Part shown: piece by piece, positions 16,615-26,590 of the stretch
Position numbering within the stretch: the first letter of the stretch is position 1
Layout: each line of letters begins with the position of its first letter
DNA from: Escherichia phage skuden
DNA: 64,000 nt
Sequence record: MN850585.1
Direction: 5' to 3' (one strand)
Translations under genes and position numbers: made by a program
Notes under the pieces: generated by a model
Seen by the model: the letters and a program-made list of their open reading frames with translations, nothing else
The model's database searches: none
What the model was told of the DNA's origin: nothing

Positions 16615-16673
16615 TTGCTTTTTATAATTTTTTGCAGTAATGTATGAGGTTAATGATTTTAGAGGGAGTAAAA

Positions 16674-19373
16674 ATGGAAAACGTAGATTTTAAAAACTTA
16701 CATTTGGTTGGTGATACAGAAACTGATGGTTTACTCCTTGAGTTCACTAAAGTTCACGTAATGGCTTTCGCAGACTATAAATCTGACGATGAAGAGCCGC
16801 CTGTATGGGTCTTTACAGATGAGCCTATCCTCGGTCACAAGTATACTAAGTATATTAAGGGTGGCTTACGTGAAGGTATTGAGTTTGCGTTAAAGGCAAA
16901 ACGTCTTTGCATCCATAACGGTCTCGGTTATGACTGGTGGGTTTTCAATCACATTGCACCGGATTTATGGAACTTTGATAATCCAAAATGTAAACCGTGG
17001 AGTAATTTCTTTCAGGATTCTCTTATCCAGTCTCGTGTTCAGTGGATGGATAGACCAACTCCAAAGGGCTATAAAGGTGCTCATGGTTTGGCTGCATGGG
17101 GTGCTCGTGTTGGTGTTCGTAAGCCAGAGATTGAGCATTGGGGTGTGTGGAATGCAGAAATCTTCACTCGTGTTGTAGAAGATATCCGTATTAACGCCAA
17201 AACTAAACGGGCACTTGATAACGAGTATCTCAAGCTTAAGAAGTGTGGCATAGACACTTATGAAACCTACATGCGAGCTAAAGAGACATCTTTCTGGATG
17301 AGCCAGCAAGCTATCAATGGTTGGAAAGCTGATAAAGAGCTTATGGAGTTCCATGTAAAGGAACTTGACAAGTTGACTAATGAGCTTGCTTCAGAGGTTG
17401 AACCACATCTACCTCCAACTATTAAGACCAAAGGTAAAGTCACTGGAGAAGAGTTTGCAAAAGCTTGGAATGAGTATGTTGAAACATTTGGTCATGCAGA
17501 TGGACTGAAGAGAATTACCAAGTACCCTAAGACAAAGTACCGTCAGCAGGTACGTAATGGTGAGATGCAGACATATGAAATCAAACCATTTGGTAAGCCA
17601 ACTACAAAGATTTTTAACATTGAAAAGAGAAATTGCTATACACCAACCAACTCTGTAACTGGTGAAGAGTACAAGGAAGGTTTTGTAGCAATGAAGGATG
17701 CTCGTGCAATTTGCAATGAGTTGAATGCAAAGATTGGTAAGAAGTGCAAAGACTGGAAGCCAGTAAAAACAGTTAAAACTGTGAAGTACTATAACAGTCA
17801 TGTTGTTAACCACTTTGAGCTTGAGTCAAGTCGCTACACAGGTTTGATTGATGCACCATATACACCAATTGAGTTCGAAGTTTCTCGTATGACTCAGGTA
17901 GCAGTTGTTAAAGACTACTTGAAATCAGTTGGTTGGGTTCCAGATGACTGGAACTACAAGAAAGACTCAGATGGTCGTCCTGTTAAGGTTTGTCGTTTCA
18001 AAGACAACAAAAAGATGATTACAAAGCATCCTAAGTGGCAGGAAATGGTTGAGCGGTGTGGTTTGAGTTATGTTGAACATGAAGGTGTACAGTACATCGA
18101 GCATAACTGGTCTGTGAAGAAATACACAGATTTGCTTGAGCCTTGCTTAATCCGTACTTCACCAAAACTTACTGAATCATCTTATGATACGATTGAAGGT
18201 GAGCTTGGACAGAAGATTGCGAAGTACTATACTTTGATGCACCGACGTAGAACTATTGAGAACTCAAAGGATGACGAGAAAGGTTGGCTGAACCAGATTC
18301 GTCCTGATGGTCGCCTTAGTGCTGGTGCAATGGTGTTTGGTACTTCAACTGGACGTATGACACAATATGGTATTGTAAACGTACCATCTGGTGCTGCTGT
18401 ATATGGAGCACCTATGAGGGAGGTGTGGACTTGTGAAGATGGTACAGATATCATCTCCGTAGACCAAAACTCAGCCCAGTTAGTTCTTCTTTGTAACTTT
18501 ATGGGTGATGAAGACTTCACTAAAGCGGTAACTGAGGGTAAAGAGTCAGTAGAGTTCACTAAGCAAGATGATGGTAGATACTACTGTAAGCATCTTGACA
18601 AGTATCTTAACCCAGAAACTGACAAGTATCTGCGTTATGATGCTGAGAATGACCTCTATGAAGTCTACACAGGGACTGATGCGCATACACTGAACAGTAT
18701 TTACTTTGGTCTTAACAAAGAAGAGGATATTATTCTTTGTCGGGAGACGCAGGATGAGGAACTTCTTCACGAGATTACAAAGGGTCGTAAAAAGGCTAAG
18801 AATGGCATCTACGCCCTGTTATTTGGAGCCGGAGACGAGAAGTTTGCAAAAACTATCAAAGCATCATCTACGGAAGAGGGTGCATTAACTAAACAAACTT
18901 ACTTTGTACGTCTACCTAAGATTAAAAAGCTGCTTGATAGACTAGAGGAAGACTTCAAAGCAACTAAGAAAGCACTTGAAGAGGTTTTTGGAAAAACTTC
19001 TGCAATTGCCAAAGGTGGTTATATCAAAGTTGCTGGGGCGTGGTTATGGTGTAAATCTCCACATAAGTTATTGAATTACACACTTATGGGCAGTGAGGCT
19101 CAAGTTCAGAATGAAGGTATTAACTTGGCAAACAGGGAACTCACAGAGCGTAAGCTTACAGTACTAAATGGTAGGAAGCCTGCTATTGGTGCTAGGTGGG
19201 TCTGTAGTTACCACGATGAGGTCTCTTTAGAGGTTCCAACCAAAGATGTACCTGATGTTAAGGAGATTATTGATAGAATGTATGGTCAAGCATCAAAAAA
19301 TCTTGGATTAAAGAGTAAGACGCTTGTTACAGGCACTGGTAAGGTAGGTAAGACATGGTACGCCGTACACTAA
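16674..19373 (+). CDS. DNA polymerase, family A
   Basis: Exo I DTETDGL; motif A-like VDQNSAQLVLL; motif B KKAKNGIYALLFGAG; motif C YHDEVSLEV; start set at ATG 16674 with RBS AGAGGGAG. Confidence 0.9.
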   Translation: MENVDFKNLHLVGDTETDGLLLEFTKVHVMAFADYKSDDEEPPVWVFTDEPILGHKYTKYIKGGLREGIEFALKAKRLCIHNGLGYDWWVFNHIAPDLWNFDNPKCKPWSNFFQDSLIQSRVQWMDRPTPKGYKGAHGLAAWGARVGVRKPEIEHWGVWNAEIFTRVVEDIRINAKTKRALDNEYLKLKKCGIDTYETYMRAKETSFWMSQQAINGWKADKELMEFHVKELDKLTNELASEVEPHLPPTIKTKGKVTGEEFAKAWNEYVETFGHADGLKRITKYPKTKYRQQVRNGEMQTYEIKPFGKPTTKIFNIEKRNCYTPTNSVTGEEYKEGFVAMKDARAICNELNAKIGKKCKDWKPVKTVKTVKYYNSHVVNHFELESSRYTGLIDAPYTPIEFEVSRMTQVAVVKDYLKSVGWVPDDWNYKKDSDGRPVKVCRFKDNKKMITKHPKWQEMVERCGLSYVEHEGVQYIEHNWSVKKYTDLLEPCLIRTSPKLTESSYDTIEGELGQKIAKYYTLMHRRRTIENSKDDEKGWLNQIRPDGRLSAGAMVFGTSTGRMTQYGIVNVPSGAAVYGAPMREVWTCEDGTDIISVDQNSAQLVLLCNFMGDEDFTKAVTEGKESVEFTKQDDGRYYCKHLDKYLNPETDKYLRYDAENDLYEVYTGTDAHTLNSIYFGLNKEEDIILCRETQDEELLHEITKGRKKAKNGIYALLFGAGDEKFAKTIKASSTEEGALTKQTYFVRLPKIKKLLDRLEEDFKATKKALEEVFGKTSAIAKGGYIKVAGAWLWCKSPHKLLNYTLMGSEAQVQNEGINLANRELTERKLTVLNGRKPAIGARWVCSYHDEVSLEVPTKDVPDVKEIIDRMYGQASKNLGLKSKTLVTGTGKVGKTWYAVH

Positions 19374-19858
19374 CACTTCAAGATTACAAGGATAATTTTA
19401 TTTACGACCCCGACAAAGGGGTCTTCTACAACAAGTATGACAGGAATAGACAAGCTAAAGCTGGGCAGATTGCAGGAGGTGCTGATGCTTACGGTTACAA
19501 AGTACTTAAATTCAAAGATGTCGTAATAAAAATTCATCACCTCGTTTGGTGGTTCGAACATGGTTACAAACCCACTAAGATGATAGACCACATTGATGGT
19601 AACAGGAGTAATAATCACATTTCTAATCTTAGGGAGACTGATAAATACGGAAATGCTCAAAATAGAGTAAAGCAGACAACTAACAAATCAGGTTACAAGG
19701 GTGTACATTACTTTAAAGACTGCAATAAGTGGAGGGCAGCTATAACATGCAGAGGTAAAAGGACATCACTTGGTTTATTTGACACACCTGAAGAAGCCCA
19801 TAAAGCTTACTGTGAAGCTGCTATTAAACTCCACGGAGAGTTTGCAAAACTGAGTTGA
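19355..19858 (+). CDS. HNH endonuclease with AP2-like DNA-binding domain
   Basis: HLVWWFEHGY...HIDGNRSNNHISNL HNH motif; GYKGVHYF...WRAAI AP2-like segment; overlaps polymerase 3' end by 19 nt. Confidence 0.7.
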   Translation: MVRRTLTLQDYKDNFIYDPDKGVFYNKYDRNRQAKAGQIAGGADAYGYKVLKFKDVVIKIHHLVWWFEHGYKPTKMIDHIDGNRSNNHISNLRETDKYGNAQNRVKQTTNKSGYKGVHYFKDCNKWRAAITCRGKRTSLGLFDTPEEAHKAYCEAAIKLHGEFAKLS

Positions 19859-19909
19859 CAAGGTGCTCAGGGAAGAGTACCTTATACTATATCTTGTATA
19901 GGAGGGCTT

Positions 19910-20119
19910 ATGAGCCACCGTGGAAGAACCCATGCAGCGATGATGAAAGGTGCTTCAAAGGAAACTATCAAGAACCGTAAGCAGAAGTTGTTTGAGAGAA
20001 TGAACAGGTTAATTGACAATTCATCTCTTTCAGGTTCTGAGAAGGTTTTCTTGAAAGATAATCTAAAAAGCATTGCACAAGAACTTATTGACATTGAGTA
20101 TTGGAGACATCAAAAATGA
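19910..20119 (+). CDS. hypothetical protein
   Basis: ORF track 69 aa. Confidence 0.4.
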   Translation: MSHRGRTHAAMMKGASKETIKNRKQKLFERMNRLIDNSSLSGSEKVFLKDNLKSIAQELIDIEYWRHQK

Positions 20120-20328
20120 CACTTGCAGACGTTATTCAGCAACTTCACGACAATTGCTATACTCCAGAGTTGATTCAGGAGATGTCCATTGTAGTGATGC
20201 CTAGTAAGTTCGTAAAAGGTTTTAATAGTGACTCTTTAAGGACTGCACACATCCTTATTGTTGACGGTAAGATTGCAAGAGACCGCACAGGAGTCCTTAA
20301 GGGCGAACGTATTAGTATTGACATCTGA
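20116..20328 (+). CDS. hypothetical protein (start taken at MTLADV)
   Basis: ORF track frame, ATG at 20116. Confidence 0.4.
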   Translation: MTLADVIQQLHDNCYTPELIQEMSIVVMPSKFVKGFNSDSLRTAHILIVDGKIARDRTGVLKGERISIDI

Positions 20329-20333
20329 GTATT

Positions 20334-20342
20334 GGGGGGGGG
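20334..20342 (+). repeat. G9 homopolymer tract 9 nt upstream of a start codon
   Basis: attGGGGGGGGGacaccaaaATG. Confidence 0.9.
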
Positions 20343-20350
20343 ACACCAAA

Positions 20351-20506
20351 ATGAAACGCAAAGTAAAATTATTTAGTTTGTATGGAAGAGTCGGTAAAGG
20401 TTTTGACTGGCAACTGCTACGTTCAGATGTTAAAAGCAACGAGTTAGCACAGCTTATTATAAACTATCGACGAACATACAGAGAAGTAGAACATCGTGAA
20501 CAGTAA
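20351..20506 (+). CDS. hypothetical small basic protein
   Basis: ATG at 20351 in frame with ORF 20258..20506; MKRKVKLFSLYGRVGKG. Confidence 0.4.
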   Translation: MKRKVKLFSLYGRVGKGFDWQLLRSDVKSNELAQLIINYRRTYREVEHREQ

Positions 20507-20519
20507 TAGGAGAAGTATT

Positions 20520-20756
20520 ATGTGGAAAGCAGTAATTGCGCTTGGTGTTATTTTTCTATCTGGCTGCAACCCTTCTTATGAAGATAAAAATGCTTCTTAC
20601 AGCCTCCCACCAGAGATGCAAGATTGCAGAGTATACAAGTTACATGGTGATGCTATAAGTAGGGATATTGTTGTTGTCAGATGTCCAAACTCTCAAACAA
20701 CAACATCTTATAGCTATGGCAAAAATGGTCAATCACATACCACGGTTATTGAGTGA
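20520..20756 (+). CDS. putative lipoprotein
   Basis: Signal peptide plus lipobox MWKAVIALGVIFLSGC; RBS TAGGAGAAG upstream of ATG 20520. Confidence 0.55.
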   Translation: MWKAVIALGVIFLSGCNPSYEDKNASYSLPPEMQDCRVYKLHGDAISRDIVVVRCPNSQTTTSYSYGKNGQSHTTVIE

Positions 20757-20766
20757 GGTTTTCACG

Positions 20767-20973
20767 ATGGAAGTATTAGTAAACTATACCTATCGTTATG
20801 ATGTTGTTCACTCCACTACAACCGTAGCTCAACGTAATCCAATCGTCCCACGAGAAGGCGAGTTGGTTCGCATTGATGGTTGGACTTACACTGTGGAAAG
20901 CATCATTCATAAGTTTGATGTTGCTGGCGATGTTCAAGTTATCGACGTAGAGATTGGTGGTAAGAGAAAATGA
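20767..20973 (+). CDS. hypothetical protein
   Basis: Internal ATG (MEVLVNYTYRY) in frame of ORF 20668..20973 with RBS GAGG upstream. Confidence 0.4.
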   Translation: MEVLVNYTYRYDVVHSTTTVAQRNPIVPREGELVRIDGWTYTVESIIHKFDVAGDVQVIDVEIGGKRK

Positions 20974-21161
20974 ACAAAGAAGACAAGCACAAAAATGCTG
21001 TACGAACTCCTGATGGGAAGATTCAATCATTCACCCTGACAGTTGGTGGAAAGCCATTCCGTTGCCACTGCGGAGCAAATTGTTTTCATAAACCGGATAA
21101 AAATGACTTAGAGCTTTACGCATGTAATGCTTGCAATACTTGGTATCACTCAGAGGAATAA
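20970..21161 (+). CDS. small zinc-ribbon protein
   Basis: CHCGANCFH...CNACN Cys/His cluster, 63 aa. Confidence 0.4.
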   Translation: MNKEDKHKNAVRTPDGKIQSFTLTVGGKPFRCHCGANCFHKPDKNDLELYACNACNTWYHSEE

Positions 21162-21162
21162 A

Positions 21163-22263
21163 ATGACAATTCTGTACAAACAAAATAAAGATGGTTCCTT
21201 CAACGTCTGGTCATGCGTTGCTGTAGGTGACAAAGTTATTACAACCTACGGTAAAGAAAATGGCAAGATGATGTTTGAAGAGTATACAGCAGAACCTAAA
21301 AACATCGGTAAAAAGAATGAGCGTAACGCTGAACAGCAAGCTCTCTTTGAAGTCGCTGCTAAGTATAAAAAGCAAGTTGACCGCAAGGGTTACGCTTACA
21401 CAAAAGAGTCTGCACAGAATACTGAGAAGGTAGGTGTACAGCTTGCTCATGATGCTGCAAAGGTTAGTCATGCAAAGTATCTGAAGTTCCCTGCTGATGC
21501 TCAACCAAAACTTGATGGTGTACGTTGTAGAATTTCAAGAGATGATGATTCAGTTAGTTTCACGGCTTATTCTCGTGAGAATACTGTTTACAACGTTCCA
21601 GCAGAACTAATCCCAGATTTGCTTTTGTTGCTTAAATTGCACCCACAAGTCGAAGATTTTGATGGTGAGATTTATGCTCACGGTTGGGACTTAGAAGATA
21701 TTGTCTCTATGATTAAGAATGCTGACAATCCAGACCGTCACCTTCTTAAATTCTACTGGTATGATATCTGTGACAATTCAAAATCTTGGCCTGAGCGTCG
21801 TGAAGTTATTGATAACTCACCCATTGTTGAGATTGGGGATACCTGTAGAGTGGTTCCTGTACAGACTATCCGTGTAAATTCTTGGGAAGAGTTTGATGAA
21901 GCTCATGATAAGTGGGTTGAAGCTAAGTTTGAAGGTGCAATGTACCGTTCAATCTCTGAAGACTCCTTCTATGAGTGTTGTCACCGTTCATACTTCTTGA
22001 TTAAGCACAAGAAGATGCACACTGAAGAGTTTAAAGTGACTGGTGTAAAGACTGATAAACGTGGTCATGGCAAGTTCGTTGTAGAGACTCTTCCTAACGT
22101 CTTTGTAGATGTCTCATGGAAGACTACTCATGAGAAGAAACAGTATCTTGCTGAGCATCCTGAAGAGTTTATCGGGAAGCCTTTAACGGTACAGTTCCAG
22201 AAGATGACTCGTAAGGGTTCTTTACAGTTCCCTGTCGGGCTAGTTATTAGGGATTATGAGTAA
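21163..22263 (+). CDS. ATP-dependent DNA ligase
   Basis: Adenylation motif I KLDG (QPKLDGVRC); about 366 aa as in T7-type ligases; start ATG 21163 with RBS GAGGAA. Confidence 0.8.
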   Translation: MTILYKQNKDGSFNVWSCVAVGDKVITTYGKENGKMMFEEYTAEPKNIGKKNERNAEQQALFEVAAKYKKQVDRKGYAYTKESAQNTEKVGVQLAHDAAKVSHAKYLKFPADAQPKLDGVRCRISRDDDSVSFTAYSRENTVYNVPAELIPDLLLLLKLHPQVEDFDGEIYAHGWDLEDIVSMIKNADNPDRHLLKFYWYDICDNSKSWPERREVIDNSPIVEIGDTCRVVPVQTIRVNSWEEFDEAHDKWVEAKFEGAMYRSISEDSFYECCHRSYFLIKHKKMHTEEFKVTGVKTDKRGHGKFVVETLPNVFVDVSWKTTHEKKQYLAEHPEEFIGKPLTVQFQKMTRKGSLQFPVGLVIRDYE

Positions 22264-26188: not shown

Positions 26189-26222
26189 AAGGCTCCCGTA
26201 AAAAGGAGCCTTAAAATTTTAT
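26189..26222. terminator. bidirectional hairpin terminator between convergent genes
   Basis: aaaaaaGGCTCCcgtaaaaaGGAGCCttaaaattttatttt. Confidence 0.6.
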
Positions 26223-26590
26223 TTTTCAGTATTCTTTGTGTTCTTTTCAGTAATAGCTTGGAGGGCTGATACTGATTGAGCCAGATTGTTAACACTATCA
26301 GAGAATTTATCAAGAGTCTTAGTAAGTTTTGCGTTCTCTCCCTTAACATTCTCTAACTGAACTTTCTGGTTCTCCATCCCTAGCTGAATCAGTCTCATGT
26401 CAGACTGTAAATCACGAATAGCTGAATAGTTACTTTTGGAATAATTATCTAGCTGCTGTAACTTTGTTGTGACAGACACTTCTTGCTTACCACTTGAAAC
26501 TTGCATGGTGGTATACATCCCAATAACACTAAAAATACCAACAACAATTGCACCAATATTGTTTTTAAAAGCTTCCTCTAGCCACTTCAT
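26219..26590 (-). CDS. membrane-anchored coiled-coil protein (spanin-like candidate)
   Basis: N-terminal TM segment IGAIVVGIFSVIGMYTT then coiled coil; 123 aa. Confidence 0.35.
   Translation of the reverse strand: MKWLEEAFKNNIGAIVVGIFSVIGMYTTMQVSSGKQEVSVTTKLQQLDNYSKSNYSAIRDLQSDMRLIQLGMENQKVQLENVKGENAKLTKTLDKFSDSVNNLAQSVSALQAITEKNTKNTEK

Follow-up and report, generated by a model that had tools for sequence, protein, structure and literature searches.

The G9 homopolymer that precedes a small gene in this phage is probably a Shine-Dalgarno element composed of G alone and expanded by slippage, and it serves as the predicted ribosome-binding site of a gene encoding a 51-aa protein. Changes in the length of the tract are probably buffered, and it is unlikely to act as a switch. 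The features on which this reading depends are listed here, with positions in the window, by which we mean the whole 64-kb stretch of DNA that was analysed.

20116-20328, + strand: upstream gene, encoding a 70-aa protein (phrog_4230, E=3e-41), with its stop codon TGA at 20326-20328.
20329-20350, + strand: intergenic spacer of 22 nt, GTATT-G9-ACACCAAA, in which GTATT and ACACCAAA are conserved in relatives and the middle is hypervariable.
20334-20342, + strand: the G9 homopolymer GGGGGGGGG, probable expanded G-only Shine-Dalgarno element of the 51-aa gene.
20351-20506, + strand: downstream gene, encoding a 51-aa basic protein (phrog_2381, E=8e-19), the gene probably served by the tract.

An earlier note on this DNA had described a G9 tract at 20334-20342 in front of a start codon, and the tract is present as claimed. 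The distance of 9 nt that it gave to the ATG (20351-20353) is right when counted from base to base, as 8 nt (ACACCAAA) lie between the last G and the A of this codon; its placement of the tract directly after the upstream stop codon is slightly off, as 5 nt (GTATT) intervene between the TGA and the first G. No other homopolymer in the 64 kb, of whatever base, is as long as G9, and no other G or C run reaches 7 nt. The next-longest runs in the window are A6 (13 occurrences), T6 (26), C6 (one) and a single G5, and counts of G-runs of length 1 to 5 fall from 8283 through 1419, 241 and 35 to 1, after which there is only the G9. The GC content of the window is 38-42%. An independent-base model predicts 0.047 G or C runs of at least 9 nt in 64 kb, and a first-order Markov model 0.026. 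With one such run seen, the rarity asserted for a tract of this kind at this GC content was borne out.

By sequence, the DNA belongs to a Felixounavirus, one of the Felix O1-like myoviruses that infect E. coli, Salmonella and Shigella. Querying with 1.9 kb around the tract gave matches to 253 phage records, and with a 20-kb query the best GenBank identity was about 95-96%, the closest phages being humlepung, nataliec and bumzen. For the 70-aa protein, no exact match was on record in the assemblies. One record, GU169904.1 ("Staphylococcus phage SA1", 147 kb), carries at 93757-95812 a region with 94.8% identity over 100% of the 1.9-kb query, which suggests that this record may be chimeric or contaminated. 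The G9 tract is located inside a block of + strand genes at 16-26 kb that runs from DNA polymerase (16644-19373) to thymidylate synthase. For Felix O1, genes 96-80 are described as a single transcription unit that is started from divergent promoters lying before the polymerase gene, and the authors gave no promoter at the corresponding place (PMC3185647). Since transcription of this unit is started upstream of the polymerase gene, the 51-aa gene relies on its own ribosome-binding site.

The product of the downstream gene had been called a small basic protein, and this description fits: it has 51 residues, with 12 K/R versus 6 D/E. No match to it was found in Pfam, PDB (by sequence) or NCBIfam. 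The ATG of the ORF is at the identical position in all relatives, and its variable sites are distributed over the three codon positions as 5/5/23. The Felix O1 allele has diverged to about 72% nucleotide identity, with the reading frame and most residues retained. On these patterns of sequence conservation, the gene is a genuine one under purifying selection. It is also an accessory gene, since it is missing in humlepung and many other relatives. We take it to be an early gene of a polycistronic operon for replication.

Several further observations concern the genes around the tract. The small genes around 19910-20119 and 20351-20506 come and go as cassettes with cuts at start codons, and the gene for a 69-aa protein at 19910-20119 is missing in L001, L007, L009, ECML-1 and a JGI contig. 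In humlepung (L016, 1032-1301), a deletion fuses the first ~9 codons of a Felix O1-type 51-aa gene to a lipoprotein gene, and the fusion is annotated as a single CDS of 89 aa. In the window, positions 20520-20756 encode a 78-aa protein with a lipoprotein-type signal (…VIFLSGC); it carries a PF16225 (DUF4884) tag in an assembly index, and gave no Pfam match at E<=0.1 when scanned. At 19355-19858 there is an HNH homing-endonuclease gene, which overlaps the DNA polymerase gene at the latter's 3' end. When a query was started at 19300, its first 450-550 nt were unmatched in most relatives, indicating that this HNH allele is absent or different there.

We read the junction between the 70-aa and 51-aa genes in 46 relatives drawn from GenBank phages, IMG/VR contigs, JGI, ENA and Logan metagenome contigs, giving 47 sequences with the window. 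The flanks TGA GTATT and A[C/T]ACCAAA ATG are conserved in the 46 relatives, and the 5-10 nt between them occur as 24 variants in the 47 sequences, with the whole spacer measuring 16-23 nt. These variants include GGTAT, GGAGAT, GGGAGT, GTGGAT, AGGGA, GGGGA(T), G4, G5, G6, G7, G5TG3T and G9, the last confined to the window. The longest G-run per sequence was 2 in 22 sequences, 3 in 13, 4 in 6, 5 in 2, 6 in 2, and 7 and 9 in one each. In a 250-nt alignment, indels were present only in the spacer columns, where mean column entropy was 0.59 versus 0.23 in the flanks. Among the 60 matches listed of 80 GenBank matches to a 90-nt query, lengths were 84-87 nt except for PK6 with 91 nt, and no match measured 90. 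Pattern scans for further long tracts returned 6 matches in viral contigs, none of them expanded, one in metagenome contigs (AGGGA), and none in genome contigs.

The longer G-runs belong to identifiable relatives: G5 to GE_vB_7A, G6 to DE17 and the ENA contig L044, G7 to L046, and the interrupted G5TG3T to PK6. The G7 sequence comes from ENA assembly ERZ28622549 (sample SAMEA104467458), and the G6 of L044 from ERZ27304021. L046, a scaffold from a sewage metagenome, is the closest relative at this locus, with 98.4% identity over 958 nt. It differs from the window by 13 substitutions, and the sole indel in the 958 nt is the 2-G difference in the tract. Identity to the window at the locus is 97.2% for L044, 95.8% for GE_vB_7A and 95.7% for VSe11 (AGGG), so that the series G5-G6-G7-G9 runs parallel to relatedness. 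That tract lengths differ among isolates by single or few bases is a signature of replication slippage. The earlier note had held that an invariant length across isolates would speak against a variable tract; in the relatives, the lengths differ. The A-run before the ATG (20343-20350 in the window) differs too, being AAA, AAAA or AAAAA (L022, L023, L048, L050, L054, L055); this variation alters the spacing from Shine-Dalgarno element to ATG, and variation of the G-run does not.

The same comparison bears on whether the tract could be a product of sequencing or assembly, with a true run of fewer G's (for example G5-G7) whose length was exaggerated by a homopolymer miscall or a poly-G artefact. 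A count of nine that is unique among the 47 sequences and among the 60 matches listed of 80 in GenBank invites this suspicion, as homopolymer lengths are error-prone on several platforms, and a related record illustrates the problem. GE_vB_7A (L017, MG969404.1, labelled UNVERIFIED) has 1-nt deletions in A-runs within conserved genes (relative to window positions 20214 and 20721), and its homopolymer lengths, G5 included, are therefore unreliable. However, independent assemblies of the closest relatives hold G6 and G7 between identical flanks, the 10-nt G5TG3T of PK6 cannot be a homopolymer miscall, and no uncompensated 1-nt coding indels were present over 20 kb in comparison with humlepung. 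Moreover, platform errors usually shorten long homopolymers and do not lengthen them, and two-colour poly-G artefacts sit at the ends of reads or contigs, not between collinear flanks. The assembly artefact proposed in the earlier note is thus improbable for the tract as such, given G5-G7 in independent assemblies of relatives and the lack of homopolymer frameshifts in the 20 kb compared; we give the count of 9 as assembled.

Three of the four properties by which we judged a Shine-Dalgarno element were found at the tract: complementarity to the anti-Shine-Dalgarno sequence, a distance of about 5-10 nt from a genuine start codon, and homology with known motifs in orthologous loci. Most relatives have GGAG, GGGAG or GGGG at 7-8 nt from the ATG, and GGAGA, GGGAG and GGGGA fill the same alignment columns as the run, which gives it positional homology with recognised Shine-Dalgarno motifs. 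As the run is without the A of GGAGG, its pairing leans on G.U wobbles: the predicted duplex of G9 with the 16S rRNA 3' end ACCUCCUUA has 8 bp, consisting of 4 G-C, 3 G.U and 1 U-A. RNA duplex energies with ACCUCCUUA, calculated with a nearest-neighbour model that is a crude proxy for initiation rate, were -2.8 kcal/mol for GGTAT, -6.4 for GGAGA, -8.4 for G5 and -11.0 for G9. The 66 crude gene calls made in the window had a median of -6.0, which places G9 in the top ~5%; random sites gave -0.9.

Other genes in the window also have sites with G-runs (AAGGGGGAG, AAGGGGAC and AAAGGGG). The only other G5 in the window lies in the upstream sequence CTTTTAAGGGGGAGAAATAAATG of a gene on the - strand (26219-26590), where the Shine-Dalgarno element AAGGGGGAG has a predicted energy of -11.2 kcal/mol. 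With this second G5 also being a Shine-Dalgarno element, ribosome-binding sites with G-runs appear to be a habit of the phage.

On the mRNA, the run of nine would pair with the CCUCC core of the 16S rRNA 3' end by G-C and G.U pairs, and the 30S subunit would thereby be placed 8-12 nt upstream of the AUG at 20351, at what is predicted to be a strong ribosome-binding site with multiple registers. Shine-Dalgarno pairing that is very strong or long can also delay entry into elongation, so that it is uncertain whether G9 raises or lowers translation relative to G4-G5. The suggestion of an unusual G-rich ribosome-binding site, made in the earlier note among others, is supported by the GGAG, GGGAG and GGGG at the same place in relatives, the 8-nt distance from a conserved ATG and the strong predicted pairing.

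The region immediately before the 51-aa gene resembles the junction that precedes the 70-aa gene. The two junctions are the following.

20086-20119, + strand: junction J1, TATTGACATTGAGTATTGGAGACATCAAAAATGA, containing the 3' end of the 69-aa gene (…IDIEYWRHQK*), a GGAG Shine-Dalgarno motif and an ATGA overlap with the 70-aa gene.
20316-20354, + strand: junction J2, a copy of J1 that holds the G9; its TATTGACATCTGAGTATTGG matches J1 at 19/20 positions in the window.

Where the spacer of a relative is unexpanded, its J1 and J2 agree at 32/35 positions with one gap (E=6e-6 in a 64-kb search space) or at 25/26 (E=1e-7), and the common sequence can be written TATTGACAT[-/C]TGAGTATTGGAGA…CAAAA(A)TGA. 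Paralogy of the 69-aa and 70-aa proteins was considered as the source of this likeness and not supported, with a BLASTP E of 2.0 and the likeness confined to the junction. J1 and J2 are direct repeats 231 nt apart around the 70-aa gene, and they could mediate deletion or duplication of that gene.

J1 is coding and almost invariant, being identical in 12/14 relatives that have it and carrying a single substitution in each of the other two, and J2 is non-coding and hypervariable. The extra C in J2 (ATC TGA versus ATT GAG) makes a stop codon, so that the copy of TGGAGACAT no longer codes for protein and has only its role as a ribosome-binding site to constrain it, which explains both its substitutional diversity and the tolerance of indels in the spacer. 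We propose that the 35 nt before the ATG arose as a duplicate of the preceding junction containing TGGAGA, that one added base created the stop codon and left the copy non-coding and free to drift, and that in one lineage GGAGA became GGGGA. The G-run would then have been lengthened stepwise through G4, G5, G6, G7 and G9, presumably by replication slippage; this order of growth is read from five or six genomes with no rooted tree. In PK6, a run of similar length is interrupted by two T's (G5TG3T).

A homopolymer that changes the length of a spacer could also act on transcription. In the promoter version of this idea, the -35 box would be TTGACA (20318-20323) and the -10 box CAAAAT, which overlaps the ATG, and the separation of 18 nt in relatives would have grown to 23 nt here, switching an internal promoter off. 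The junctions do offer some resemblance: J1 scores 10/12 as TTGACA-18-AAAAAT, and J2 reads TTGACA-18-CAAAAT in those relatives that have TTGACA and a 17-nt spacer. Promoter-like sites in a scan of 19300-21300 were however at chance level (7 versus 5.1 +/- 2.4 in shuffled sequences), and the only one touching the tract was a 9/12 match that begins inside it. The -35 hexamer varies in J2 (TTGACC, TTGGCC, TTGTCC, TTGACT, TTAACT), as expected for codons of a variable C-terminus. Since the putative -10 overlaps the start codon, the transcript would begin inside the 51-aa gene, and the treatment of genes 96-80 in Felix O1 as one unit with no promoter here (PMC3185647) also counts against one. With hits not above chance and a -35 that is not conserved, we rejected the promoter spacer as very improbable.

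Recoding is still less probable, to the point of being negligible. It would require that the G-run or the stop context induce ribosomes to shift by +1 or to read through at AUC UGA G, so joining the 70-aa protein to the 51-aa one. The frame GAG TAT TGG GGG GGG GAC ACC AAA ATG is indeed open with G9 and in phase with the 51-aa gene, and an ORF of 82 aa (20258-20506) crosses the tract in that frame. This relation is limited to the spacer length that G9 provides, and spacers of 16-20 nt in 45/46 relatives break the frame, which led us to reject a fusion. The codons found before the UGA (AUC, CUC, UUC) are not +1-slippery, and in its upstream portion the 82-aa ORF shares its nucleotides, in a different frame, with the conserved 70-aa gene. 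A Shine-Dalgarno-like element precedes the stop codon in the prfB frameshift, whereas the run here follows it.

Structured RNA was likewise rejected as an explanation. No Rfam match at E<=1 was found except a chance match to a miRNA 300 nt away, the run is mostly unpaired in the predicted folds, and the minimum free energy is independent of run length. An intramolecular G-quadruplex was also set aside: such a structure needs four G-tracts of at least 2-3 nt with short loops between them, and G9 is a lone run, with the next GGG 30 nt upstream (20301-20303).

To return to the reading of the tract as a Shine-Dalgarno element, we rebuilt the mRNA context with G2-G12 and applied nearest-neighbour models. 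Predicted pairing with the anti-Shine-Dalgarno sequence rose to G8 and was then flat at -11.0 kcal/mol through G12, with a predicted gain of about 5.5 kcal/mol from G4 to G8. The minimum free energy was about -21 kcal/mol whatever the run length, and from G5 on the run was mostly unpaired (pairing probability 0.2-0.35). Added G's sit 5' of the fixed 8-nt spacer, so the pairing register nearest the AUG does not move. Since pairing saturates at G8, the spacer is constant and neither an ORF nor a credible promoter crosses the tract, an on/off phase switch is unlikely. In these models, slippage by +/-1 around G9 would be nearly silent for translation, and only a long-range change (G4 to at least G8) would strengthen the Shine-Dalgarno element. 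The tract may thus be described as a mutable yet functionally buffered site.

The earlier note had also suggested a slipped-strand variable tract that modulates expression of the downstream gene. The variable part of this suggestion stands, with graded lengths of G3, G4, G5, G6, G7 and G9 among relatives; the geometry argues against a switch. In a fuller form, the tract would be a contingency locus or rheostat, kept as a hypermutable site at which slippage generates subpopulations with unequal translation of the 51-aa protein, or of downstream genes coupled to it, as a form of bet-hedging like that proposed for homopolymers of T-even phages and polyG tracts of Campylobacter phages. At 9 nt the tract is longer than the 6 nt taken as the threshold for putative contingency loci of phages (PMC12633550). 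Close relatives show lengths of G5, G6, G6, G7 and G9 as well as the interrupted 10-mer, with identical flanks for the G-runs, and the tract is the one place of length change against 13 substitutions in the comparison with L046. The predicted change in strength of ~5.5 kcal/mol from G4 to G8 means that longer-range changes in length could tune expression. However, the tract is outside any ORF and cannot cause a frameshift, no credible promoter spans it, and with a fixed spacer and with pairing and structure flat from G8 to G12, the commonest events, of +/-1, are predicted to be silent. Lineages without a run also vary by substitution (24 variants) and the gene is deleted in many relatives, for which relaxed constraint is the better fit. 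Repeat length (6-7 nt or more) and polymorphism among close relatives are thus as in known contingency loci, and the placement is not one capable of switching. We regard a contingency locus as doubtful on this evidence. Somewhat more doubtful again is a rheostat acting on translation initiation of phrog_2381, an accessory early gene that may have a role in host takeover or anti-defence, in a lineage selected for longer runs; were the rheostat reading true, higher or more variable expression of the 51-aa protein would pay off on some hosts.

Taken as an ordinary ribosome-binding site that gained a homopolymer, the tract is a minor curiosity and brings no new mechanism. Its interest is in the natural series to which it belongs, in which one gene with constant flanks has a Shine-Dalgarno element ranging from near-absent (GGTAT) via GGAG to G5, G6, G7 and G9, and in which J1, the coding paralogue of the 35 nt, is frozen and serves as an internal control. 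The series shows the drift of a Shine-Dalgarno element freed from coding constraint, together with the growth of a G-run once formed. It offers a ready test set for the effect of homopolymer Shine-Dalgarno length on initiation, and for whether intergenic homopolymers in virulent phages act as contingency loci, a claim that has been raised for T-even phages. For annotation and assembly pipelines, the tract length here is worth checking against reads.

Among known systems, the prfB-like +1 frameshift differs from G9 in that the run here is downstream of the stop, the codons are non-slippery and the frame is broken at other spacer lengths. In Neisseria, Bordetella and Haemophilus, phase variation occurs via homopolymers in promoter spacers. 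G9 is alike in being a G/C homopolymer in a 5' regulatory region, but no conserved -35/-10 pair surrounds it, and the distance from Shine-Dalgarno element to ATG is unaffected by its length.

Homopolymers of at least 6 nt in T2, T4 and T7 show slippage variants in reads, and a 9-nt run in T2 agt averages ~7e-4 (PMC12633550). The contingency repeats of T2 agt and T4 rIIA (Gomez, Barrick & Waters preprint, PMC12633550) resemble G9 as homopolymers of at least 6 nt in a virulent coliphage that differ in length among relatives and probably undergo slippage. They act by reversible frameshift inside ORFs, whereas G9 is intergenic and upstream of a fixed spacer. Hypermutable polyG tracts are also found in Campylobacter Fletchervirus phages, as these are described where Sorensen et al. 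2021 is cited (PMC12633550). On that description, they too are phage G-runs (7-11 nt) of variable length, but there are several per genome, inside receptor-binding-protein genes, where they give on/off switching, and the host itself uses polyG phase variation. G9, set against these tracts as so described, is single, non-coding, in an enterobacterial phage, and between two small genes of a replication operon. It resembles phage contingency loci and the Fletchervirus tracts only as a slippage-prone run; the position from which such a run could switch a gene is the key feature in which it departs from them.

The canonical Shine-Dalgarno element, GGAGG pairing with ACCUCCUUA, is a further point of comparison. 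G9 differs from it as a pure homopolymer of 9 nt without A, with G.U wobbles and several registers, and is like it in lying 8 nt from a conserved ATG, in being purine-rich and in its complementarity to CCUCC.
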